A DNA stretch of 64,000 nucleotides, from positions 7,998,001-8,062,000 of the forward strand of contig OX597821.1 of NCBI GenBank assembly GCA_951406725.2. The letters are read 5' to 3'. A program made the position numbers and the translations under genes. This DNA is from Octopus vulgaris (taxonomy: Eukaryota). A model generated the notes under the pieces. It made no database searches. It was not told the origin of the DNA and saw only the letters and a program-made list of their open reading frames with translations. Shown here piece by piece: positions 5,600-54,001 of this stretch (the first letter of the stretch is position 1; each line of letters opens with the position of its first letter).

Positions 5600-5700
5600 C
5601 AAGAGAGGCCGGGAAATCAGTCGCTAAGTTGCAAGTCGAATCCAAGAGCAAACAACTCCTCGCTGTCTTGGCAACGACGGATCTCGCGAGATTCCCGCCA
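5600..5700 (+). promoter_or_regulatory. CpG-rich core promoter with TCTCGCGAGA palindrome and E2F-like and RFX-like motifs
   Basis: Local CpG enrichment. ATCTCGCGAGAT at 5681-5692, TTCCCGCC at 5692-5699, GCCGGGAAA near 5608 and TTGGCAAC near 5668. A strong donor follows at 5860/5861. Confidence 0.65.
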
Positions 5701-5860
5701 CATCGTCTCCATTGTTTTTTGGGGTTGGTCGAAAGTTTCCCTCATTTCGGGGCAGATTTTTATGTTTTATTTCATGTTTTGTGGGGAAACAGTAAAAAGA
5801 CCAACTTTTATGGGACGTTCTCAAAGATAATTCATCTACTGAGTAAATTTTGAATAGCAG
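5700..5860 (+). other. Putative non-coding first exon (start approximate), shared by the DUF4817-like ORF and the CWC25-like gene
   Basis: Ends in the consensus donor CAG|GTAAGA immediately downstream of the promoter motifs. Contains a 22-codon uORF at 5762-5830. Confidence 0.55.
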
Positions 5861-7067
5861 GTAAGATTAAAAAACATTTTTTAATTAAAGCCTAGCTCTG
5901 TGTTTTATTGTTTGTGTAGTTTGATGGAAAGAGGAAAGAAAACAAGTTAAGGGGTCCCCGCTGCCAATTAGTGTGCTTAATTAGCGTCTAATTAAGAAGC
6001 TAGGAGACTAAACTACTTTCAAATTACTTCATTGTTTGTAAATTCCCACATTTTGTCTTTATATATCTCCTCATCCGTCGCAAATAAAAGAAAATAATTA
6101 ATATTTCTGAGCTTTTCTATTTTTTTTTTTGTAAGGCATAATTAATGTATAATCGATTGTTGATTGGTGAAAGTGAAAGTTGTGCACCAAAGCTCGACGA
6201 TTGTCAGCATGTAAGGAATGCACCAAATCGCAATATCTGGTGTGGCCTTTCTTTTCTCTAACACGAGTATGTTTTGAGAGAGACATGCCTGCTATTTCTT
6301 GAAGGTCGTGCGTCGGCGTGTAGGCTTCCCTCGTTGCTTCTGAGTAGTAAACAGTTGGTGTTTTGCGCCTATCTGAATAGATCCAGTCAGTCCCTTCGAC
6401 GCACCGATCTAAAATCATCAAGAAGCATGAAGCCAATGAAAGAGTTTTCATATAGTCACTCGACATGCTAGAAATAGCAGTCAGATCTTCCTTATTTTAT
6501 ACCCAACTGCCTCGAGGAAAGAAAAGAGACGCATTAGATAATGTAATCCCGATGGTCATTCCCAGATAGAATGTCTTTTGATCATATGTTTGTTTAATCC
6601 GCATTGACTTGGAAACTGAAAGAACAACCGTGTATTTAATCTAGATCCTTTCTGATCTTAATCCGTCTGTGAGAAATATTAAAGGATGATCTTGGATTAT
6701 AGCGTGTCACTTTCACTTTGTCGAACTGTAGTTGGGTTCAGTTTGTTTTTGGTACCTGCAGAATTTTTGTTTTCGTGTCAGCTTGTTTGTCATAGGACAT
6801 AGTTTTGGGGGCAATTATTGTACACATAAGCTGGGCAAAGTGAAACCCAATGCCAAATCGAAAGTAGGCTTTCACTTACACGCAGCACTTTTCGGCATTC
6901 CCAGTTTATATGTACAGTAATCGAAAGAGCGGCAGTAATTGTTATTTGTGCTGTTGTTGCGGTTGATTTTTCCTGCTGTCTGAGATTCTGAAGAATTCTT
7001 GTTGTTAGATTTGGTTATGACTTCTGATGATCGCACAGAAGCTCCATAATAAGGTAAAAAAAAAAAA

Positions 7068-7246: not shown

Positions 7247-8211
7247 GGATATTTTCGCTTTGACCGGCAGATTTTAAAAATAATTTCTTTGTAACTAAAC
7301 ACTTTTAAACTTCTTTTTCTCTTAGCTTTCTTGAGAAAATTCTGTGGTTTGTAAGCTATTTGTTGTTTAATTTCTTGCATTTCGGCAATTTCAACCAATC
7401 AATGACGACTATTGAGGTGAATACAATTTCTCTGGATCTTTGTCAACAACAATTATTTGCGACATATTTCATATCAGTTATGTTCATATGAATAAAAGAT
7501 TATCGTTATTAAACTTTTATTAATAAACACATATTCTAAGTTCACAACATAAGCAGTTTTAATTTTCCTCTCTGTTGCACAGATTCACACATTACATATT
7601 ATATATTCGTTTAAGAAACAGATTGGGTTTATTTACATTTCTGAAGAAAAAAATATACCCTTTCCCCCACCCCTATCCCTAACCTTAACCCTAACCCTAC
7701 CCCTACCCTAACCCTAACTCTAACCCTAGCCCAACCCTAACGCTAACCCTAACCCTAACTCTAGCCCTAACTAACTCTAACCCTAACCCAACCCTAACCC
7801 TAACACAAATCGAAATGCAATTGATCGATACTAGGGTCATAATTATAGGTGGACACTAAAGAGGGAATGGCTTTGTTATCCAGCTCTGTTTACGAGAGAC
7901 CCCTCAGTTTATGGCCACATGGTATCCTTTTTCTCATAAATAACAGGAACAAATTCATATGATGCCGCAAATAATTGTTGTTGACAAAGATCCAGAGAAA
8001 TTGTATTCATCTCATTAGACATCATTGATTGGTTGAAATTGCCGAAATGCAAGAAATTAAACAACAAATAGCTTACAAACTACAGAATTTTTTCAAGAAA
8101 GCCAAAAGAAAAAGGTGTTTCATAAACACATTCTACCAGTATACAAAGTTTAAAAGTGTTTAGTTACAAAGAAATTATTTTAAAAATCTGCCGGTCAAAG
8201 CGAAAAGATCC
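7247..8211. mobile_element. Non-autonomous DNA transposon with ~230-bp TIRs, 8-bp TSD and internal (CCCTAA)n
   Basis: TIR GGATATTTTCGCTTTGACCGGCAG / CTGCCGGTCAAAGCGAAAAGATCC. TSD CAGACGAC at 7239-7246 and 8212-8219. It splits an older repeat. Confidence 0.88.
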
Positions 8212-9970: not shown

Positions 9971-10566
9971 TTTTGACAGAAAAATCTGAAAGGTAAAAAG
10001 TAAAAAAAAACTGATTGGAACTGTCCAGTGTATAAGTGGTAGAACCAAAGCTTTGCATAAAAAGATGACTTTCTGTGCCAAAGGATTTGTGATGTTTTGA
10101 GCTGGGATATTTATAAAGGGTGTGAATGGAGTTTTGTCTTCTACTTTAATTTCTCATGTTACCCTTTTTTATTCTGCTGCTCCTAGTGCCGGTGGTGGTT
10201 GGGGGCTTTGACTTGTCTTTCTTTCATCATTCATTCATTCCTTTCAGAAAACAATAAGACAATACCTACGATATACTGGGGAAGCCTGATTCAATCACCT
10301 TATAGTTGTTCCTCTTAACAGACCATCTTGTGTTTATATTTTGCTGTTATATGTTCTATTTTTTAAAATTATCATTGTGTCTCTTGTATTTTTATGTTCA
10401 ATTAACATGTTTTAAATATTTATTACCATAATAATAATAATAATAATAGTAATAATAATAATAATAACGATTATAATAATAATATTGTTATTATTTCAAA
10501 ATGAAGTATAGGTCTCTAGGTTGGGGATCAGTTTACTGTTTTGATTTTTTTTCAGAGTGCCCAGCT

Positions 10567-11046
10567 ATGTGTGACCAAAGCCCTTACAGTATAGAGGAGA
10601 GACTGATAGCCTCTGTTTGGATGCATGAGCGTGTACGAAACCGACAGAAAGTTCCAGAGATAAGACGAGCGTTTGAGCAGCGCTTTGGGAAGCAGGCTCC
10701 CACTCCTCGGATTTTACGTGAGTGGGAAAAGAAAGTTTTTGAGACCGGCAGTGTTCTGGATGCTTCTCGCTGTGGGCGGCCGGCGACATCTACTGAGCAC
10801 ATTGTGGCTGTGGAACAGTCAATCTTGAACTCACCAACGCAATCGACACGAAAGCGCTCAGCTGAGCTGCAAATACCTAGAAGTACTTTACAAAAAGTAA
10901 TGAAACTTAATTTACAGCGTAAAGCATTGAACATGAACAAAACAACAGACACCTCTGTTCATGAAACAGAAGCTCTTGCTAATAACAATAACAATAATAA
11001 TAATAATAATATTAATAATGATAATAATGACGATGATGTTCAATAA
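10567..11046 (+). CDS. DUF4817-like helix-turn-helix protein (Tc1/mariner transposase N-terminal DNA-binding region only), 159 aa, with poly-Asn tail
   Basis: YSIEERL...IRRAFEQRFGKQAPTPRILREWEKKVFETGSVLDASRCGRP...SPTQSTRKRSAELQIPRSTLQKVMK is a typical mariner-type paired HTH. Acceptor TTTTTTTTCAG| at 10555, ATG at 10567, stop at 11044-11046 overlapping AATAAA (11045-11050). No DDE domain. Confidence 0.8.
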   Translation: MCDQSPYSIEERLIASVWMHERVRNRQKVPEIRRAFEQRFGKQAPTPRILREWEKKVFETGSVLDASRCGRPATSTEHIVAVEQSILNSPTQSTRKRSAELQIPRSTLQKVMKLNLQRKALNMNKTTDTSVHETEALANNNNNNNNNNINNDNNDDDVQ

Positions 11047-12356
11047 TAAAAAGGATGAAGCCATGTTTCTATTTGCTCTCAATTTTTTTGTTTTTGAAAT
11101 ATTTAAGCTTATGTCATACAGTTACATTTGGAAGAGACAAACAAAGAAATTCTCTTTGACCTGTCAGATGTATACATACACATACATGTATGTATATTTG
11201 TGTGTGTGTATGTACATGTACGTGAGTGCTTGATTGGTTAATTGCAATTTTAAATTTCAGGAGAAAACTTGAAGGGAAAGATACATGAGAATACTCACTA
11301 ATAAGAATTGTGTAAAAACTATACAGTACTTTTGTTGTTGAATCAATTGATAGAGGTTGCTGCTGCTGCTTTAATTATGAAGTAATTACCATTTTCATCA
11401 CCGTCATAAACATCATCAGTGCCTCTACTACCATCGTCATCATTACCTGTCAATTGTAGGAAATTGATTGATTTTATAGACATAGGCATGGCTGTGTGGT
11501 AGAGAAGTTTGCACCTTGGGCAAGGATTTTTTTTACTGTAATCCCAGGTTGACCAATGCACTGTGAGTGAATTAGGTAGAGAGGAAACTGTACGAAACCC
11601 ATCATATATTCTTTTACTTGTTTCAGTCATTTGATTGCGGCCATGCTCGAGTACCACCTTAAAGGGATTTTAGTCAAAGAAATGCCCCCCTCCCCCCCGC
11701 CAGGACTTATTCTCTGTAAGCCCAGTACTCATTCTATCAGTCTCTTTGGCTGAACCACTAAGTTATGGAGACAGAAACACACCAACATCAGTTGTCAAGC
11801 AATGGTAGGAGGGAACAAATGCAGACATGCACATTAATACACACACACACATATATATATACACACACACATACAATAGGTTTCTTTCAGTTTCCATCTA
11901 CCAGATCCACCCACAATGCTTTGGTTGGCCTGAGGCTATAGTACAGTGGTTTGCAACCTTTTCACTACCACAGACCCCTTTTATATAAATAAGTTTTCCC
12001 ATGGCCCCCAGGATATTGAAAGGTCTTATTTCTTTATTACCCACACCTATACCCATACAAACTTGGGTTACTTACCCTTATCTGGTTATTGTGCCATTGT
12101 AAATGTGTTAAAAAAATTTGAGCCTACTGATAAAAAAAAAGGTAAGTCGACCCCAATGATGTAATTAGCATGATAATTAATGTCTTATCATTCCTATGTA
12201 ATTTTAATTATGTTAATCACTTTGTTTCTTTCTTTCTAGAAAGTAGTTTTTATGAATTTTTTGTTTTAACTTGTTGAGTGCCCTTAACCTTTGCAGGCCC
12301 TCCAAGACTAGTGAGCTTGATGTTGTTAATGTTTTGTTTGAACTGTTGCAGGTCAA

Positions 12357-12726
12357 CCCTTACAAGAAAGACAGGCAGGGAAGTGATTCCAGAGGCATAA
12401 TGTTGTAGGGTAGGAAGTTGATGGAAATAGTGTTTTTAATGCAGGGACACCTTACAAGAAAAACAGGCAGGGAGATGATTCCAGAGGCATAATGTTGTAG
12501 GGTAGGAAGTTGATGGAAATAGTGTTTTTAATGCAGGGACACCTTACAAGAAAAACAGGCAGGGAGATGATTCCAGAGGCATAATGTTGTAGGGTAGGAA
12601 GTTGATGGAAATAGTGTTTTTAATGCAGGGACACCTTACAAGAAAAACAGGCAGGGAGATGATTCCAGAGGCATAATGTTGTAGGGTAGGAAGTTGATGG
12701 AAATAGTGTTTTTAATGCAGGGACAC
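12357..12726. repeat. Four tandem copies of a 92-bp unit derived from a LINE 3' end
   Basis: CTTACAAG recurs at 12359, 12451, 12543 and 12635. Confidence 0.9.
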
Positions 12727-18280: not shown

Positions 18281-18393
18281 AAAGCCTGTCCGGATTAACA
18301 AGAGGCCATTGAATGACTCAGAGAGGTTATCTTTGATTTAAGAAGTTCAACGTTTTGCAGGATTAACAAATCAGTTGACATAGAATATTTCAG
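18281..18393 (+). other. CWC25: Putative 5' UTR exon of the CWC25-like gene
   Basis: Polypyrimidine tract plus TTGCAG| acceptor and CAG|GTAAGT donor, in unique sequence. It places an in-frame TAG upstream of the ATG at 20912. Confidence 0.55.
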
Positions 18394-18706
18394 GTAAGTT
18401 CTAATTTTAATAGTTTATTCAAAAAAATTTTTTTTTTCATCTGTTTGTCTAGGCTTTTCTTTCACTTCAATGTAAGTTCTGTCCTCAAATTTTTGTAGTG
18501 ATGCATTACTTCATCTGATTATAGAGACCTGTAACCATTAGCCAGGTTCTGAAGATCTCTGTCTTCTGCTATGAGAAGGCTGGTGGTAGGTGGTGAAATT
18601 TGAACCTAGATCCCAAAGAAATGGAACAGACATGACAAGGCATCTCGCTGGATGCTCTAAGAATTTCACTGGTCTATTTGTAATGAGGCAAAGAGCCACA
18701 TAGAGA

Positions 18707-18770
18707 CTGGCATAGTGGTTAAGAGTGCGGGCCACCAACCCCAAGATTCCGAGTTCATTCCAGACAGTGA

Positions 18771-18812
<42 letters not shown>

Positions 18813-18956
18813 TAATAACAACAAACAAACAAACAAAAAAAACCCTTAGGAATGAGAACCCAGGTTCAAAATTTCCCCAAGACACCTGATGAAGGCTGAA
18901 ACGTTGTGTTAACAACAAACAAGATGAGGACAAATATCTGTCAAATGTAAATAATG
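18707..18956 (+). mobile_element. tRNA-headed SINE carrying a minimal hammerhead-like motif
   Basis: Head TGGCATAGTGGTTAAGAG...CCGAGTTCATTCC, then (AAT)n, then GACAC-CTGATGA-aggct-GAAA-CGTT-GTGTT. Confidence 0.6.
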
Positions 18957-19463
18957 CCTCTATTATTGTTGTAAATTCTAGGTCATCTCTGATCAAACAA
19001 ACCTATAACTACAGATATTCCATTCCATTGTAGCCATTCTGTCTTTTCCTGCACATGTAACTCAGAACCACAAATAAGTGTTTTCTCAGATGGTAGGGTG
19101 TAATTTAAGTTAGATTTATCTATTTCTAGCAATTTGAAAGACCATGTAAGGGCTCCCACATTTCCTTGTTAAATCTGATTGTTGATATATTAAGTACAAG
19201 AAAGAAAAATAAACAGTCCTTGGAGAGAATACTGGTCTGTTACAGCTAAGCACAACTTCAGAAATGTCTGGTACCTTTTCCTCATAGTTTGCTACTTGGT
19301 TGTACCCATCACTAAGCTGTTGGTAAAAATATTTGTTAATCATGTATGTACCTTTATAAATTATTCAAAGTTGAAAGTCATTTTTTAATGTCTATGTTAT
19401 ATCTATATGCTGAAAGACATACAGAAACGCACACATACACAACCCTCAAAAATAGCTATGTAT

Positions 19464-19494
<31 letters not shown>

Positions 19495-19524
19495 GTATAT
19501 ATATACACATGTATATATATTTTA

Positions 19525-19806
19525 CTCATAAGGTATTGGAATATTATTTGCATACTATTCTGCCTAAAATAAAAAGGGATCTACAAATGCAATATCCCTA
19601 CATATCTCACATCTATTTTCTTTTATTTCCTCCACCTCACTCTCTATTTTATATCTTATCTAAATTAACTATTACTTAATCATCCTCTCACACCGTCTCC
19701 GATAAAGGGATATAATTAATAAATATCCTGGAAACAGCTGTAAGACCTATCTATAAATGTTCTAAAATCTACACAGCCTTGGTTTTTTATCTCATTATGA
19801 AATAAA

Positions 19807-19810
<4 letters not shown>
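19525..19810 (+). mobile_element. Penelope-like element 3' remnant with hammerhead-like motif
   Basis: The peptide HKVLEYYLHTILPKIKR resembles a GIY-YIG C-terminus. A type I hammerhead fold follows at 19695-19746. Flanked by (TA)n. Confidence 0.55.
19695..19746 (+). ncRNA. Degenerate type I minimal hammerhead ribozyme
   Basis: Stem I GTCT/AGAC, core CCGATAA (consensus CUGANGA), stem II GGGATA/TATCCT, GAAA, palindromic CAGCTG, cleavage-site UA. Confidence 0.55.
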
Positions 19811-19851
<41 letters not shown>

Positions 19852-20057
19852 TATACACACATATATATATGCATACATATTATATATACATACATATGTC
19901 AATTTAAATACACAATTGAAAGAGCTACTAATACTTTCATGCTATTATGATACTTGAACAGGAATATTTATAAAATATTCCATGTATCTTAAAGCAACAC
20001 AGACTTAAAAAAAAACGACTATATATATGTATACATATAGTCTATTTATCTATCTTT

Positions 20058-20095
<38 letters not shown>

Positions 20096-20911
20096 TTCTC
20101 TATTTCTCTCTTCCCTATTTTCCCTCTCTTTACACAGATGTTATGGACAGACAGATGAAGATCAACTTCTCTTTTTTAATATATGATTGGACTGATATAC
20201 TGAAGAAAAAGAAAATTAAAATTCTGTGTCCTACTTAGAAACACTAATAGTCCAATTTAAACTCATCATCCATAAGTCACTGAACATTGCAATTTGTTAA
20301 TTGCCTAGTCATGTTGTCAATCATCAGTCATTTATCTCTGGTACTCCTATGTTGAGATTGTGGAGCGCATAGCCTAGTGGTTAGGGTATCAGCGCCATGA
20401 TTGTAAGATTGTGGTTTTGATTCCTGGACTGGGCGACACGTGTTCTTGAGCAAAACACTTCATTTCACATTGCTTCAGTTCACTCAGCTGGCAAAAATGA
20501 GTAACGCTGCGATGGACTGGTGTCCCGTCCAGCTGGGGAACACATATGCCATAGAAACCGGGCCCATGAGCCTGGCTAGGCTTTAAAAGGGCACGCACTC
20601 CTATGTTGAGGAAGCAAGTTTGGAAGGAGAGCATGAGAAAAATTGCTTTGCAGCAATTCTTTACATTTCAGATCCAAAATGCCTAAAGTTGGTGGTGAGG
20701 AAACCAGACATGTTTGCTGTTTGGAAACTTTGCAGTTGAAATAGTCACTTTATAGATTCCTCTTCTTTGTATGCTTCCATTTGTGGAGAATAATTGCTTT
20801 TGGCACTTTATATTCTTTAGGTTTGTATTGTTATTTCATTGGTTCCATATCTTGAAGAATAATTCTTTGATAAAATTTTGTCTTTTAATTTCAGCAAACA
20901 AAAACAACAGC

Positions 20912-20958
20912 ATGGATAGCGATGAAAAGAAAAAGATTGTTGAAGTTATGAAAGCCAA
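20912..20958 (+). CDS. CWC25: CWC25-like coding exon 1 (MDSDEKKKIVEVMKA-K); the exon begins at 20895
   Basis: TTTCAG| acceptor, ATG in the context ACAGCATGG, phase-2 donor AA|GTAAGG compatible with the next exon. Confidence 0.7.
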
Positions 20959-21294
20959 GTAAGGATTTTATTCTTGTCTTATCTTTTATCTTCTACTTGT
21001 TTTGTTCGTTAGACTGTGGCCATGCTGGGGTGCCATATTGAGGAATTCTTTAGTCAAATGAATCAGCCCCTGTATTTCTCTTTTTTAAGTCTGGTATTTA
21101 CTGTATTGGTTTCTTTTGAAGAATTGGTAAATTATGTGGATGTAAAAACACACCGACACTGGTTGTCAAGTGGTGGTGGTGGGGAGGGACAAACACACAC
21201 ACATACACACACGCACACATACACACATGCACACACGTGGTGGTGGGGAGGGACAAACACGCACACATACACACACGCACACATACACACATGC

Positions 21295-21326
<32 letters not shown>

Positions 21327-22283
21327 ATACACACATGCACACACACACACACACACACACATAAGTTTCTGTCTACCAAATCCAAACACAAGGCTTTGGT
21401 TGGCCCAAAGCTATAGTAGAAGACACTTGCTCAAGGTGCCACACAGTGGGACTGAACCTGGAACCATGTGGTTGGGAAGCAAACTTCCTACCACACAGTT
21501 ACACCTGTGCCTCTCTCTGGTGTTTCCGCTGTGTTTATTTTTGTTGCTGATTGGAAATATGGTTTTGGGTTCAGTACCACTGTGTAACACCTTTGGCAAG
21601 TGTCTTCTACTATAACTAACCAATACCTTGTGAGTGAATTTGGTAGACGGAAACTGAAAGAAGCCCATCATATGTATGCATGTATGCATGTATGTATGGA
21701 TGGATGGATGCATGCATGTATGTTTCTTTGTGTCTGTGTTTATCCCCCCACCATCTCTTGACAACTGATGTTAGTGTGTTTACGTCCCCTGTAACTTAGC
21801 AGTTCGGCAAAAGACCGATAGAATAAAGAATAACTCCTGGGGTCAATTTCTTTGACTAAAACCCTTTAAGCCAGTGCTCCAGCATGACTGAAACAGGTAA
21901 AAGAATAAAAGAATGTATATGTGTGTGTGTTTGCATCTTTGTGTTTGTTCCCTACCATCACTTGAAACCAGTGTTGGTTTGTTTACATCTCTGTAGTTTG
22001 GTGGTTCAGCGAAAAGGAACCTACAGAATAAGTACCTGGTTTAAAACAGGACAGTAATTACTGGGGTCAATTTGTTTGACTAAACCCTTCAAGGTGATGC
22101 CCCAGCATGGGCACAATCAAATCTCTGAAACAAGTCAACAATAAAAGATAGGTACAAAGCCAAAATTAAGTGGAAGGGATCAGTTAAGGGGTATTAAATC
22201 AATCACAGTACTTGACCAGTACTTTATTTTATCAACTCTGAAAGGGTGCAAAAGAAATCTGATCTCAAGTCATCCAGTCATCA

Positions 22284-22363
<80 letters not shown>

Positions 22364-22799
22364 ATTTATTTATTTTTCCATTAAGGCAGCGAGTTGGCAG
22401 AAACGTTAGCACACCGGGTGAAATGCTTGGCGGTATTTTGTTTGCCGTTACATTCTGAGTTCAAATTCCGCTGAGGCCGACTTTGCCTTTCATCCTTTCG
22501 GGGCCGATTAAAAAAGTACCAGTTGTGCACTGGAGTCGATGTAATCGACTTAATCCCTTTGTTTGTCCTCTCTATGTTTAGCCCCCTGTGGGCAATAAAG
22601 AAATATATATTTTTTTTCATTGACCCCTTCAAAGGTATGAATGTCAGTTGACTTCAGCTAGATTTGAGACGAAAACACAAAGGGTTGTAACTAAATACCA
22701 CAAAATATTTTTGTTTGACACTCTACTAATTCTACCTATCCATCCCTGCTCACCTCATATAATTTTCATTGTGAAAGAATTCTATTTTTACCAATTACA

Positions 22800-23050
22800 A
22801 TCAGTCATGCTGAGTAGGGGTTCTTAAGCAAATACTGGAGCCTGACTGGCTACGATGTGCTTCTACTGGTCAGCATCAAGCTCTCAGGTATTCTTGGACC
22901 TCGCATTGCTGACTTCTTCCACAAAATCATAATCACAGCAGCCTACCTGAGAAATGATCCCTGCAAGGTTGGGAGACTGTTGCCACGTGTGTTACTAGCC
23001 ATTCTCTGGGGCAATGCCTTTGCAATTATGCCCATGAGGTGCGGCTGAAC
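22800..23050 (+). mobile_element. Degenerate CRE-like RLE retrotransposon C-terminal fragment
   Basis: KYWSLTGYDV..VSIKLSGILGP...NDP...RVLLAILWGNAFAIM resembles the ETLG.WGP...DP....QR.S.AIQRGNA end of CRE elements. Confidence 0.5.
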
Positions 23051-23310
23051 ACATTGTTTGGACTGGGGTGTACAACCTGTGACTCCCTTCTCCTCATCTT
23101 TTGTTACTTAATCCCCATCTCTTTTTCTTTGTTTCTCTGTTGAAGGAATTCTGGGTTTTTTCTCGATAATTTGATCTTTTATTCTTTTAAGTTTTTCTTT
23201 CTTTTCTTCCTATAAAAATATGTTGCTCAATAAAAATTCATTTTATTATTTAAAAAATCCCCCAAAATTAGTAAAATGATTGTTTTTTCTTAATTGCATT
23301 CCATCTGCAG

Positions 23311-23429
23311 AAAAGGGGAGAGCAATCTTGATTGGATGTATAAAGGCATGGCACCGGACACCGATGATTATCTTATGGGAAGAAAAGTCGATAATTACAT
23401 TGAGAAGAAATCAGAAACTACTAAAGATG
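23311..23429 (+). CDS. CWC25: CWC25-like coding exon 2 (KGESNLDWMYKGMAPDTDDYLMGRKVDNYIEKKSETTKD)
   Basis: Hallmark LDWMY...YL(L/M)GR motif of Cwc25; canonical AG/GT boundaries. Confidence 0.92.
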
Positions 23430-24693: not shown

Positions 24694-24787
24694 GTAAATT
24701 CAGTACCAACTTCACGACTCGAATCAAGACTAATGTAATGATGGACAGCGCCACGCAGATGCGAGAAGATCCACTCTTTGTGATGCG
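24694..24787 (+). CDS. CWC25: CWC25-like coding exon 3 (GKFSTNFTTRIKTNVMMDSATQMREDPLFVMR)
   Basis: Conserved REDPLF motif; CCAG| acceptor, |GTAAGA donor, phases consistent. Confidence 0.92.
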
Positions 24788-27445: not shown

Positions 27446-27515
27446 GAAACAGGAGGAAGAAGCACGGCGCAGGATTTTGGACAACCCAATTAAAATGAAA
27501 CAAATTCAAAAAATG
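27446..27515 (+). CDS. CWC25: CWC25-like coding exon 4 (KQEEEARRRILDNPIKMKQIQKM)
   Basis: Matches the Cwc25 KKEEEKKREVLNNPVKMKKI segment; AG/GT boundaries. Confidence 0.9.
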
Positions 27516-29241: not shown

Positions 29242-29466
29242 CTCAAAAGCCAGAAAAAACCTCACAAGTCCAAGAAACACAAGAAGAGCAAAAAGAAAAA
29301 GAAATACCATGACTCTGACTCTGACTCTGACTCCTCGTCATCAGACTCGTCAGATGAATTAGTGAAGGCTTATCTGGCCATTGTTAAAAAGAAGAATAAA
29401 GACCAGTGTGATGAAGAGCAGAATCCAGTTGACAAGATGCAGAAGTCTTCACATTATGGATTGATT
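29242..29466 (+). CDS. CWC25: CWC25-like coding exon 5 (Lys-rich and Ser/Asp-rich region ending HYGLI)
   Basis: 225-nt open phase-0 exon; KKHKK...SDSDS and YGL motif as in CWC25; |GTAAGT donor. Confidence 0.9.
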
Positions 29467-31098: not shown

Positions 31099-31352
31099 AA
31101 GAGCAGTTCTAGCCACCAGTCTTCAGAAAGAAATGCTCCTCGGTCAGGCCACTCTCATATCTCCCACAGTAACAGTCCTGAGAAGGATGAGGAAAAGTAC
31201 AAGCATAAACACAAGTCTCACCACTCGCACAGAGATTCTTCATCGAAACACGCACACGATAGCTTTAGCTCTCAGTCGAAATCAAGCGACCATGGACAAT
31301 CTAGATCAGCGTCATCACACACGAGACATCGAAGTCGGTCACCTCCAACAAA
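31099..31352 (+). CDS. CWC25: CWC25-like coding exon 6 (Ser/His/Arg-rich, ...RHRSRSPPT)
   Basis: TTTTCAG| acceptor, open frame, RS-like region, AA|GTAAGT donor. Confidence 0.88.
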
Positions 31353-33292: not shown

Positions 33293-33451
33293 GAAATTAA
33301 ATGCGAGTGATCGTGAGAAAAAACTTCAAGAAATGATGTCTGACGCTAAATGGCGCTCTGATGTCCGAGCACATAATGTCAAAGTTTATGAGAAAGAATG
33401 TGAGCTTGATGAGAAGAATACTCACAAAGGAAGCAGTTCGGATTTTCTAAA
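33293..33451 (+). CDS. CWC25: CWC25-like coding exon 7 (KLNASDREKKLQEMMSDAKWRSDVRAHNV...)
   Basis: Matches the CWC25 KLSAEELERKRQEMMENAKWR motif; canonical splice sites. Confidence 0.92.
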
Positions 33452-34221: not shown

Positions 34222-34336
34222 CCCCATGATGTCACAACATGCCTCTCAGAGTAGTGTTGAAGAGAGAATCCGGAGAAACAAATACAACATCCAGAGAACT
34301 AAATCACAGTTAAATGCTAACTTTACAAAGAGATAA
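34222..34336 (+). CDS. CWC25: CWC25-like terminal coding exon (PMMSQHASQSSVEERIRRNKYNIQRTKSQLNANFTKR*)
   Basis: Matches the CWC25 C-terminus SSLEDRVKRNIYSLQRT...NFMKR; stop TAA at 34334-34336. Confidence 0.92.
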
Positions 34337-34356: not shown

Positions 34357-34362
34357 AATAAA
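34357..34362 (+). terminator. Polyadenylation signal AATAAA of the CWC25-like gene
   Basis: AATAAA 20 nt after the stop codon, with a T/GT-rich tract downstream. Confidence 0.55.
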
Positions 34363-49415: not shown

Positions 49416-50109
49416 TTTGAAGTAGAATATTCTCCTCTCAAGATACCCTAACCAGTTGGTCATGTGTAGTGGAAACGGAATCATGTCTATGTCTCCATGC
49501 ATATTCAGGCATCTCCTTTCTGTCTGTCGTTGTGCCTTTGCTGCTAAATTTTCTTTTTCAGTTGCATATTATATATAAGTGAAAGCTCATTAAGAACTAT
49601 CTTGTTTAGCATGCTAGAAATAGCAGCAATCACATAGTTATCATTTTAAGGTTTATAGCATTCTAAGTAGCCATACCAACGAAATCACTTCTTCATTTAA
49701 AAAAAAGAAAAAGAAAATTATACTGGGATGTTAAAGAATTTTTATTTCATCAAAAATATTAATTTAACAAACTCTGGAAACTGATAATATTCTTGAAATT
49801 CTGCCTCATATGAAAATTAAGTAGCTATTTTGAGTAATAGCATGCATTCATTCATGACAAAATCACTTAGAAATTATACTGGTATATTAAAAAATTTTCA
49901 TTTCATCAAAAATATTCATTTAACAAACTCCGGAAACTGATAATATTCTTGAAATTGTGTCTTGTATCAAAGTCATACAGCTATTATTAAATTATCATTA
50001 ATGAAAATAGAGGTGAGCGAGAATGAGAGACTGTTGCAAATAAAAACATAAAATGTTGCCTGCAATGAATTAATAGTGTTTATTATTGAACATTAAAATC
50101 TACTCTCCA

Positions 50110-53100
50110 CAGTGAATGCAATGAATATTTAAATTTATGAAGAATTGAATGCAGTGAATGCAATGAATATTTAAATTTATGAAGAATTGAATGCAGTGAA
50201 TGCAATGAATATTTAAATTTATGAAGAATTGAATGCAGTGAATGCAATGAATATTTAAATTTATGAAGAATTGAATGCAGTGAATGCAATGAATATTTAA
50301 ATTTATGAAGAATTGAATGCAGTGAATGCAATGAATATTTAAATTTATGAAGAATTGAATGCAGTGAATGCAATGAATATTTAAATTTATGAAGAATTGA
50401 ATGCAGTGAATGCAATTTAAATTTATGAAGAATTGAATGCAGTGAATGCAATGAATATTTAATTTATGAAGAATTGAATGCAGTGAATGCAATGAATATT
50501 TAAATTTATGAAGAATTGAATGCAGTGAATGCAATGAATATTTAAATTTATGAAGAATTGAATGCAGTGAATGCAATGAATATTTAAATTTATGAAGAAT
50601 TGAATGCAGTGAATGCAATGAATATTTAAATTTATGAAGAATTGAATGCAATGAATATTTAAATTTATGAATGAATGCAGTGAATGCAATGAATATTTAA
50701 ATTTATGAAGAATTGAATGCAGTGAATGCAATGAATATTTAAATTTATGAAGAATTGAATGCAGTGAATGCAATGAATATTTAAATTTATGAAGAATTGA
50801 ATGCAGTGAATGCAATGAATATTTAAATTTATGAAGAATTGAATGCAGTGAATGCAATGAATATTTAAATTTATGAAGAATTGAATGCAGTGAATGCAAT
50901 GAATATTTAAATTTATGAAGAATTGAATGCAGTGAATGCAATGAATATTTAAATTTATGAAGAATTGAATGCAGTGAATGCAATGAATATTTAAATTTAT
51001 GAAGAATTGAATGCAGTGAATGCAATGAATATTTAAATTTATGAAGAATTGAATGCAGTGAATGCAATGAATATTTAAATTTATGAAGAATTGAATGCAG
51101 TGAATGCAATGAATATTTAAATTTATGAAGAATTGAATGCAGTGAATGCAATGAATATTTAAATTTATGAAGAATTGAATGCAGTGAATGCAATGAATAT
51201 TTAAATTTATGAAGAATTGAATGCAGTGAATGCAATGAATATTTAAATTTATGAAGAATTGAATGCAGTGAATGCAATGAATATTTAAATTTATGAAGAA
51301 TTGAATGCAGTGAATGCAATGAATATTTAAATTTATGAAGAATTGAATGCAGTGAATGCAATGAATATTTAAATTTATGAAGAATTGAATGCAGTGAATG
51401 CAATGAATATTTAAATTTATGAAGAATTGAATGCAGTGAATGCAATGAATATTTAAATTTATGAAGAATTGAATGCAGTGAATGCAATGAATATTTAAAT
51501 TTATGAAGAATTGAATGCAGTGAATGCAATGAATATTTAAATTTATGAAGAATTGAATGCAGTGAATGCAAATGAATATTTAAATTTATGAAGAATTGAA
51601 TGCAGTGAATGCAATGAATATTTAAATTTATGAAGAATTGAATGCAGTGAATGCAATGAATATTTAAATTTATGAAGAATTGAATGCAGTATGAATGCAA
51701 TGAATATTTAAATTTATGAAGAATTGAATGCAGTGAATGCAATGAATTTTAAATTTATGAAGAATTGAATGCAGTGAATGCAATGAATATTTAAATTTAT
51801 GAAGAATTGAATGCAGTGATGAATGAATATTTAAATTTATGAAGAATTGAATGCAGTGAATGCAATGAATATTTAAATTTATGAAGAATTATGCAATGAA
51901 TATTTAAATTTATGAAGAATTGAATGCAGTGAAATTTATGAAGAATTGAATGCAGTGAATGCAATGAATATTTAAATTTATGAAGAATTGAATGCAGTAA
52001 TTGAATATTTAAATTTATGAAGAATTGAATGCAGTGAATGCAATGAATATTTAAATTTATGAAGAATTGAATGCAGTGAATGCAATGAATATTTAAATTT
52101 ATGAAGAATTGAATGCAATGAATATTTAAATTTATGAAGAATTGAATGCAGTGAATGCAATGAATATTTAAATTTATGAAGAATTGAATGCAGTGAATGC
52201 AATGAATATTTAAATTTATGAAGAATTGAATGCAATGAATATTTAAATTTATGAAGAATTGAATGCAGTGAATGCAATGAATATTTAAATTTATGAAGAA
52301 TTGAATGCAGTGAATGCAATGAATATTTAAATTTATGAAGAATTGAATGCAGTGAATATTTAAATTTATGAAGAATTGAATGCAGTGAATGCAATGAATA
52401 TTTAAATTTATGAAGAATTGAATGCAATGAATATTTAAATTTATGAAGAATTGAATGCAGTGAATGCAATGAATATTTAAATTTATGAAGAATTGAATGC
52501 AGTGAATGCAATGAATATTTAAATTTATGAAGAATTGAATGCAATGAATATTTAAATTTATGAAGAATTGAATGCAGTGAATGCAATGAATATTTAAATT
52601 TATGAAAAATTGAATGCAGTGAATGCAATGAATATTTAAATTTATGAAGAATTGAATGCAGTGAATATTTAAATTTATGAAGAATTGAATGCAGTGAATG
52701 CAATGAATATTTAAATTTATGAAGAATTGAATGCAGTGAATGCAATGAATATTTAAATTTATGAAGAATTGAATGCAGTGAATGCAATGAATATTTAAAT
52801 TTATGAAGAATTGAATGCAGTGAATATTTAAATTTATGAAGAATTGAATGCAGTGAATGCAATGAATATTTAAATTTATGAAGAATTGAATGCAGTGAAT
52901 GCAATGAATATTTAAATTTATGAAGAATTGAATGCAATGAATATTTAAATTTATGAAGAATTGAATGCAGTGAATGCAATGAATATTTAAATTTATGAAG
53001 AATTGAATGCAGTGAATATTTAAATTTATGAAGAATTGAATGCAGTGAATGCAATGAATATTTAAATTTATGAAGAATTGAATGCAGTGAATGCAATGAA

Positions 53101-53780
53101 TATTTAAATTTATGAAGAATTGAATGCAATGAATATTTAAATTTATGAAGAATTGAATGCAGTGAATGCAATGAATATTTAAATTTATGAAGAATTGAAT
53201 GCAGTGAATGCAATGAATATTTAAATTTATGAAGAATTGAATGCAATGAATATTTAAATTTATGAAGAATTGAATGCAGTGAATGCAATGAATATTTAAA
53301 TTTATGAAGAATTGAATGCAGTGAATGCAATGAATATTTAAATTTATGAAGAATTGAATGCAATGAATATTTAAATTTATGAAGAATTGAATGCAGTGAA
53401 TGCAATGAATATTTAAATTTATGAAGAATTGAATGCAGTGAATGCAATGAATATTTAAATTTATGAAGAATTGAATGCAGTGAATATTTAAATTTATGAA
53501 GAATTGAATGCAGTGAATGCAATGAATATTTAAATTTATGAAGAATTGAATGCAATGAATATTTAAATTTATGAAGAATTGAATGCAGTGAATGCAATGA
53601 ATATTTAAATTTATGAAGAATTGAATGCAGTGAATGCAATGAATATTTAAATTTATGAAGAATTGAATGCAGTGAATGCAATGAATATTTAAATTTATGA
53701 AGAATTGAATGCAGTGAATGCAATGAATATTTAAATTTATGAAGAATTGAATGCAGTGAATGCAATGAATATTTAAATTT
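50110..53780. repeat. Satellite array of 42-bp unit GAATGCAGTGAATGCAATGAATATTTAAATTTATGAAGAATT with 33-bp variants (roughly 90 units)
   Basis: Directly visible tandem array. Confidence 0.98.
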
Positions 53781-54001
53781 GCAAGTATTTGGAGTTTAAA
53801 AAATTCAATAAACTTCAGATATCGAAATTATAGGAAATTTCTTAGAACATGAATTTATAAAAATATTCCCAGACAGTCAAGCTTTTAATATTGCTTTCTT
53901 TTAGTAATTGTTACATATCTAATTAATAACCAGCTTTCTTCATTATAGTATGTATGTATGTGTGTATATATATATCATCATCATCATTTAGCGTCCGTTT
54001 T

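Follow-up and report, generated by a model that had tools for sequence, protein, structure and literature searches.

The N-terminus of Cwc25 is a textbook contact within the spliceosome's active site. Can an animal then keep a CWC25 gene from which this segment is missing? The question is raised by a locus of Octopus vulgaris on contig OX597821.1 (positions 7,998,001–8,062,000, a stretch of 64,000 nucleotides hereafter called the window), where an original prediction, centered on positions 18281–23429, described a CWC25-like protein lacking an essential N-terminal Cir_N segment. This locus is the only CWC25 gene detected in the octopus genome, and its reading frame is intact and Cir_N is absent. 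Its domain, its intron and its place in the tree, all judged from sequence, identify it as an orthologue of CWC25 that is without the canonical architecture of Cir_N plus CWC25, and this loss of the N-terminal arm in a true orthologue is very probably ancient.

The octopus gene consists of 10 exons with AG/GT ends, in which an open frame of 360 residues runs from the ATG at 20912 to the TAA at 34334–34336. The exons, in window positions, are as follows.

5724–5860, plus strand: likely first exon, non-coding, from contig cover, with a GT donor at 5861.
18281–18393, plus strand: non-coding exon with an in-frame TAG at 18381–18383, from sequence and contigs.
20895–20958, plus strand: first coding exon with the ATG at 20912 and the remnant helix (residues 1–15), from sequence, contigs and profile match.
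23311–23429, plus strand: exon with LDWMY and DYLMG, in which the Pfam CWC25 match begins, from Pfam and contigs.
24694–24787, plus strand: exon with REDPLF, from sequence, matching P0001.
27446–27515, plus strand: exon with the NPIKMK helix, from sequence.
29242–29466, plus strand: Lys-rich and Ser/Asp-rich exon, up to HYGL, from sequence.
31099–31352, plus strand: low-complexity exon rich in Ser, His and Arg, from sequence.
33293–33451, plus strand: exon with the conserved C-terminal helix (AKWR), from sequence comparison.
34222–34336, plus strand: last coding exon, ending at the TAA, with AATAAA at 34357–34362.

The product starts MDSDEKKKIVEVMKAK and passes directly into KGESNLDWMY. Residue for residue it equals the C-terminal 360 amino acids of the O. 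vulgaris protein P0003, which shares a 90% cluster with P0001. A phase-2 intron follows exon 20895–20958, 8 residues ahead of W in WMY. The exon coordinates of the original prediction needed small corrections, since the first coding exon is 20895–20958 and the transcript appears to start farther up, in an exon whose end at 5860 would be spliced to 18281. This join is deduced from contig geometry. Contig cover begins at 5724 and in each of the four runs halts at 5860, before the GT donor, and the contigs overhang 18281 on its 5′ side by 29 letters in three runs and by 22 in X8. Both observations fit an exon ending at 5860 with two downstream choices that start with A (18281 and 10557). The contigs were taken from four runs (X1, X8, X2 and X11) of the 24 listed, representing four studies. 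None of the 24 is on record as RNA and the RNA status of the four is the tool's guess; they were treated as likely RNA because their contigs are spliced. The 3′ end of exon 18281–18393 is joined to exon 20895–20958 in every run, and the onward join to the start of exon 23311 is visible as a loose contig end in three of them (X1, X8 and X11). Past exon 20895–20958 the contigs extend by 214 letters in X1, at least 255 in X11 and 908 in X2, and X8 stops after 8. As those of X1, X11 and X2 continue, a second exon feeding into 23311 is absent at the level kept by the assemblies, in which rare isoforms are dropped.

These contigs bear on the explanation that the missing segment is an artefact or is coded out of sight, by Cir_N exons in a gap or farther upstream, by a recoded leader (e.g., adenosine-to-inosine editing of the TAG), or by an N-terminus of the DUF4817 family. 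In its favor, cephalopods edit their RNA heavily, assembled contigs lose rare isoforms, and the public model P0003 fuses a DUF4817 exon in frame to CWC25 by splicing into 18384. The TAG at 18381–18383, which had been noticed ahead of the ATG in the original prediction, is present in the sequence and lies in frame nine codons 5′ of the ATG. Contigs run unbroken through its exon in four of four runs, which argues against the DUF4817 fusion as a common isoform, and the fusion was rejected as the main one. Another in-frame TAA is located farther up, and the four ATGs upstream of 20912 are all out of frame, opening upstream reading frames of 6–22 residues. Translated in frame, the leader contains four stops and nothing resembling Cir_N; stop recoding was rejected on these grounds. 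When a profile of 28 canonical CWC25 N-termini was run over the window and 100 kb upstream (164 kb, containing no N), no credible Cir_N exon was found (best E 0.52), and an assembly gap was likewise discarded. As a control, the same profile ranked two exons of CIR1, another Cir_N protein, first on their stretch (E 0.025 and 0.32). With the truncated start itself conserved across phyla, as described below, an artefact or hidden coding is highly improbable.

At the protein level, P0001 matched Pfam CWC25 (PF12542) with 56.9 bits against a cut-off of 31.4, and Pfam Cir_N (PF10197) was absent from the octopus protein at E ≤ 1. Human CWC25 aligned with it only over human residues 59–425 (E 1.7e-39). 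The absence of the Cir_N segment was thus borne out, as were the intact frame and downstream motifs: WMY, EDP, NP, AKWR and the C-terminal end (NF.KR) are all kept. The signature of CIR1 (FHP, FMY and a zinc-knuckle-like segment) is absent from the protein. A structure model (AlphaFold) placed a helix at residues 3–18, with a predicted local distance difference test (pLDDT) value of 81 over residues 1–10 and low confidence elsewhere. Neither of the two models submitted to Foldseek matched anything in the PDB; both are low-confidence helix strings (predicted TM-scores of 0.23 and 0.25).

Could a canonical CWC25 be encoded elsewhere and perform branching, leaving the window gene as a regulatory duplicate? 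Over the whole genome PF12542 matched this locus only, and a full canonical CWC25 from a millipede recovered only three exons of the same gene at E ≤ 10, themselves weak matches (E 0.38–0.56). The canonical 74-residue N-terminus had no genome match at E ≤ 10, and the pattern KKSWHP had four (control 2), none of which runs on as Cir_N. Pfam Cir_N gave one match over the genome, a LENG1-like exon at G000:C25:19271063 (L001). This search overlooked CIR1 because an intron splits the CIR1 Cir_N, so that a single match is no proof of absence, and to this extent an overlooked paralogue is favored, as it is by the homologue lists, which were seen in part (see below). The tree bears on the same question and is considered with those lists.

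The next question is what was lost and what remains. A profile of spiralian proteins, aligned with the canonical profile, starts at position 20, covers the E..KI..L helix, skips approximately 47–63 and rejoins before WMY. When the WMY anchor was removed, the N-terminal helix still matched canonical positions 30–47, and 0 of 200 column shuffles reached this score in each of two sets. The earlier suggestion that DEKKKIVEV derives from the ERKKIEEL helix was accordingly supported. Canonical residues 1–19 are absent in the spiralian profile, and approximately 1–29 in octopus. Lingula CWC25 can be aligned without gaps from canonical residue 20, which is Met in many arthropod forms. This start suggests that residues 1–19 were likely lost first, followed by erosion to approximately residue 30 in octopods. 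Seven partial CWC25 proteins of birds begin 8 residues before W of WMY, which is the octopus intron position, and this match fits orthology.

Octopus sinensis, O. bimaculoides and Argonauta show the same truncated start. When single octopus sequences served as queries, word-based protein searches yielded octopods only, a misleadingly narrow range. The homologue lists comprised the best 150 of 571 and the best 120 of 297 matches, many without a species name, and the best deep-search matches (150 of 571) have short N-termini aligned to query residue 1. CWC25 without Cir_N was identified in gastropods (Haliotis, Batillaria, Nucella and Elysia), in bivalves (Pecten and Mizuhopecten) and, outside molluscs, in the brachiopod Lingula, the nemertean Tubulanus and the rotifer Brachionus. 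Bivalve CWC25, proposed as an intact control, hence cannot serve as one. Among the matches listed, the species-named rows with Cir_N are arthropods, amphioxus and vertebrates, and no species-named spiralian protein has both CWC25 and Cir_N. None of 16 spiralian-type proteins (12 with a species name, 4 without) was hit by Pfam Cir_N, against both of the two arthropod controls. An Atlas cluster of 311 members, in which CWC25 occurs in 90%, Cir_N is unlisted and Mollusca is the commonest phylum, is a lead only (score 0.79). An octopus-specific loss was rejected, as the truncated start is common to molluscs, a brachiopod, a nemertean and a rotifer. The lineage-specific loss considered in the original prediction is real, but its lineage is far wider than the cephalopods.

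A core tree was built with the N-terminus excluded, from 58 of 166 quick-tree rows, leaving out species-less short-start rows and long-branch rows. It separated 22 lophotrochozoan-type rows from the others by a branch with support 98/97, with zero Cir_N rows among them; in the quick tree the lophotrochozoan group had a Shimodaira–Hasegawa-like approximate likelihood ratio (SH-aLRT) of 83. Octopus CWC25 nests with molluscs, following species relationships, and P0166 groups with octopods. No duplicate branch was present in the tree, which speaks against an overlooked canonical paralogue; we regard that explanation as unlikely. A neofunctionalised paralogue, the other option raised earlier, is unsupported because the one CWC25 locus found is placed as in the species tree.

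Further CWC25 groups without Cir_N and without the helix remnant were observed among the quick-tree rows: a 14-row clade (SH-aLRT 100), an 11-row clade (99), a group of five rows that open with MFSQ or a similar string, and the crinoid Antedon. Example proteins are P0064, P0133, P0037 and P0029, and these groups may be independent losses or gene-call fragments.

How, then, is branching achieved without the arm? In the accessible part of PMC5340917, the N-terminus of yeast Cwc25 inserts into the branch helix, with branch-site contacts from G2 and K10, and Cwc25 is described as the last factor required for efficient branching in the accessible parts of 10.1101/500363 and PMC8022279. In our comparison this segment is nearly invariant across yeast, vertebrates and arthropods. 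That another intact Cir_N protein exists in the genome, as the idea of compensation supposed, was verified for CIR1, located on the minus strand at G000:C18:14389462–14398583 (loci L016, L019 and L020; five exons read). Its Cir_N is complete over two exons, at 14398583 (Cir_N 2–12) and 14395406 (13–37), with the intron between KR and VW, and its zinc-knuckle-like exon is present. CIR1 was found by a fourth DNA pattern, as one of eight matches; three earlier patterns gave 0, 0 and 5 genome matches, none of them CIR1, owing to the intron and to sequence differences. Residues 11–78 of human CIR1 match positions 9–80 of the CWC25 profile (E 0.0038), and 6ZYM and 8I0W, structures of the human spliceosome in the PDB, contain chains of both of these paralogues. 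In the paper behind 6ZYM, CIR1 is reportedly assigned to the human C complex. The entry 8I0W is termed C complex in the accessible part of PMC13736545.

CIR1 was chosen as the donor of the arm because the segment with G2 and K10 is gone, CIR1 is intact, matches the CWC25 profile and shares PDB entries with CWC25, and LENG1 is tied to discard. Our preferred reading, held tentatively and a little short of an even chance, is that headless CWC25 acts as a tether and CIR1 supplies the arm in place of the lost N-terminus. A single loss of residues 1–19, on the stem of the lophotrochozoans or of the spiralians, would have come about through a start at the internal Met20, where Lingula still starts, with later erosion to approximately residue 30 in octopods. 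Its remnant helix and WMY segment would still bring the shortened CWC25 into the step-1 spliceosome, where it would act as a tether, and the N-terminal Cir_N helix of CIR1 would take over the branch-helix contacts. Still more tentatively, spiralian spliceosomes may have split the branching factor between CIR1 as the active-site helix and headless CWC25 as the tether, before molluscs, brachiopods and rotifers diverged. If true, such a split would mean that CIR1 serves animals as a branching factor and can stand in for the CWC25 arm.

Several points weigh against this reading. CIR1 is also intact where CWC25 is full-length, as in human, so that its presence does not show substitution. A single origin for rotifers and lophotrochozoans has a support of only 83/39, at which 9 rotifer-type rows join the lophotrochozoan rows, and the quick tree set rotifers elsewhere. 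Among the matches listed, which are only the two portions of the homologue lists given above (150 of 571; 120 of 297), there is no species-named annelid, flatworm, squid or Nautilus. A finely split canonical copy is possible, as a genome search can overlook an intron-split Cir_N in the way it did with CIR1. Furthermore, the accessible part of PMC5340917 reports that N-terminal tags on yeast Cwc25 leave splicing unimpaired and that purified spliceosomes without Cwc25 splice at low efficiency, and that of PMC10158995 reports that 21 of 40 reduced lineages lack Cwc25. The word essential, as used in the original prediction, hence holds for the entire yeast protein; on the N-terminus itself, PMC5340917, as far as accessible, offers structural contacts only, with harmless tags.

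The observations on yeast and on reduced lineages equally favor the main rival, in which the same ancient loss left the arm unreplaced, YJU2, ISY1 and the tethered remnant being sufficient, perhaps with looser branch-site control. It is also consistent with the statement, in the accessible part of 10.1101/500363, that Yju2 alone draws the branch helix near the 5′ splice site, and with the further Cir_N-less clades among the quick-tree rows. The near invariance of the segment from yeast to vertebrates and arthropods argues against a dispensable arm, as does the strong stimulation of branching by yeast Cwc25 described in the same part of 10.1101/500363; moreover, the octopus gene has kb-scale introns, which would set it apart from reduced-genome lineages. 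We consider an unreplaced arm possible, though doubtful.

A third Cir_N protein could also provide the arm. The only Pfam Cir_N match genome-wide is the exon on G000:C25, which, by its sequence, we take to be LENG1. The accessible part of PMC13736545 presents LENG1 as a paralogue of CWC25 and predicts a pairing with YJU2B like that of CWC25 with YJU2; the same source ties LENG1 to YJU2B and to the discard of defective spliceosomes, not to branching, making it a very unlikely donor. Exons of the Saf4/Yju2 family were present at two loci, L049 (C9) and L050–L053 (C2), which are likely YJU2 and YJU2B, in one order or the other. Stand-alone Cir_N proteins were also sought in the Atlas, where mere leads scoring below 0.9 turned up and none was molluscan.

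Two further features lie at the promoter and in the first intron.

5682–5691, no strand assigned: palindrome TCTCGCGAGA, directly 5′ of the contig cover starting at 5724.
10557–11051, plus strand: DUF4817 open reading frame with ATG at 10570, 158 residues, transposon-like helix-turn-helix, from Pfam, in the first intron.

The palindrome TCTCGCGAGA, which we take to be a housekeeping-promoter motif, is likely a promoter element. In run X1, a contig break at approximately 5799 hints at an alternative 5′ leader. The DUF4817 match is below the Pfam cut-off (E 0.0018), and the exon possesses a good acceptor and an AATAAA; it is probably an alternative last exon that shares the CWC25 promoter and lies outside the CWC25 protein. 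The family of this reading frame is multi-copy, with 149 genomic matches among 150 scored, the closest being 70% identical and located on C5. The first intron also carries a tandem repeat of approximately 88 bases in four copies (12370–12725) and a CCCTAA-type run (7680–7805). An AT-rich tandem satellite with a unit of approximately 40 bases occupies approximately 50110–53900 of the window (50000–52200 read), which explains the long minus-strand reading frames and the GC skew there.

The distribution described above means that a large animal clade splices without the CWC25 N-terminal segment. The loss is not a cephalopod novelty, and no link to cephalopod traits is warranted. Public annotation already contains the truncated proteins, labeled simply CWC25. 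A literature search on CWC25 with octopus, molluscs or CIR1, with supplements and most subscription papers outside it, gave no account of the loss, and CIR1 and CWC25 go unmentioned in the main text of PMC11283556. The finding should be surprising for spliceosome specialists, although its mechanism is inferred. It offers a natural deletion experiment on the role of CIR1 in the step-1 spliceosome and on the need for the CWC25 arm when CIR1 is present.

Comparison with known systems places the octopus gene closest to CWC25 itself (CCDC49; yeast Cwc25), with which it shares the PF12542 match, the motifs from WMY to the C-terminal end and the intron 8 residues before W. It differs from canonical CWC25 in lacking MGGGDLN..KKSWHP..VW, the segment holding the yeast G2 and K10 contacts, and in the deletion of approximately 47–63, by which one short helix leads into WMY. 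CIR1 (corepressor interacting with RBPJ 1) has a Cir_N followed by an FMY motif, matches the CWC25 profile and shares PDB 6ZYM and 8I0W; however, octopus CIR1 is a separate gene on another contig, and the window gene is not CIR1. LENG1, acting with YJU2B on defective spliceosomes, keeps its Cir_N, whereas octopus CWC25 carries the CWC25 domain but is devoid of Cir_N. Reduced spliceosomes without Cwc25, such as that of Cyanidioschyzon merolae, likewise branch without the Cwc25 N-terminus, according to the accessible part of PMC10158995. In those intron-poor genomes the whole protein is missing, whereas here the remainder is conserved in intron-rich animals.

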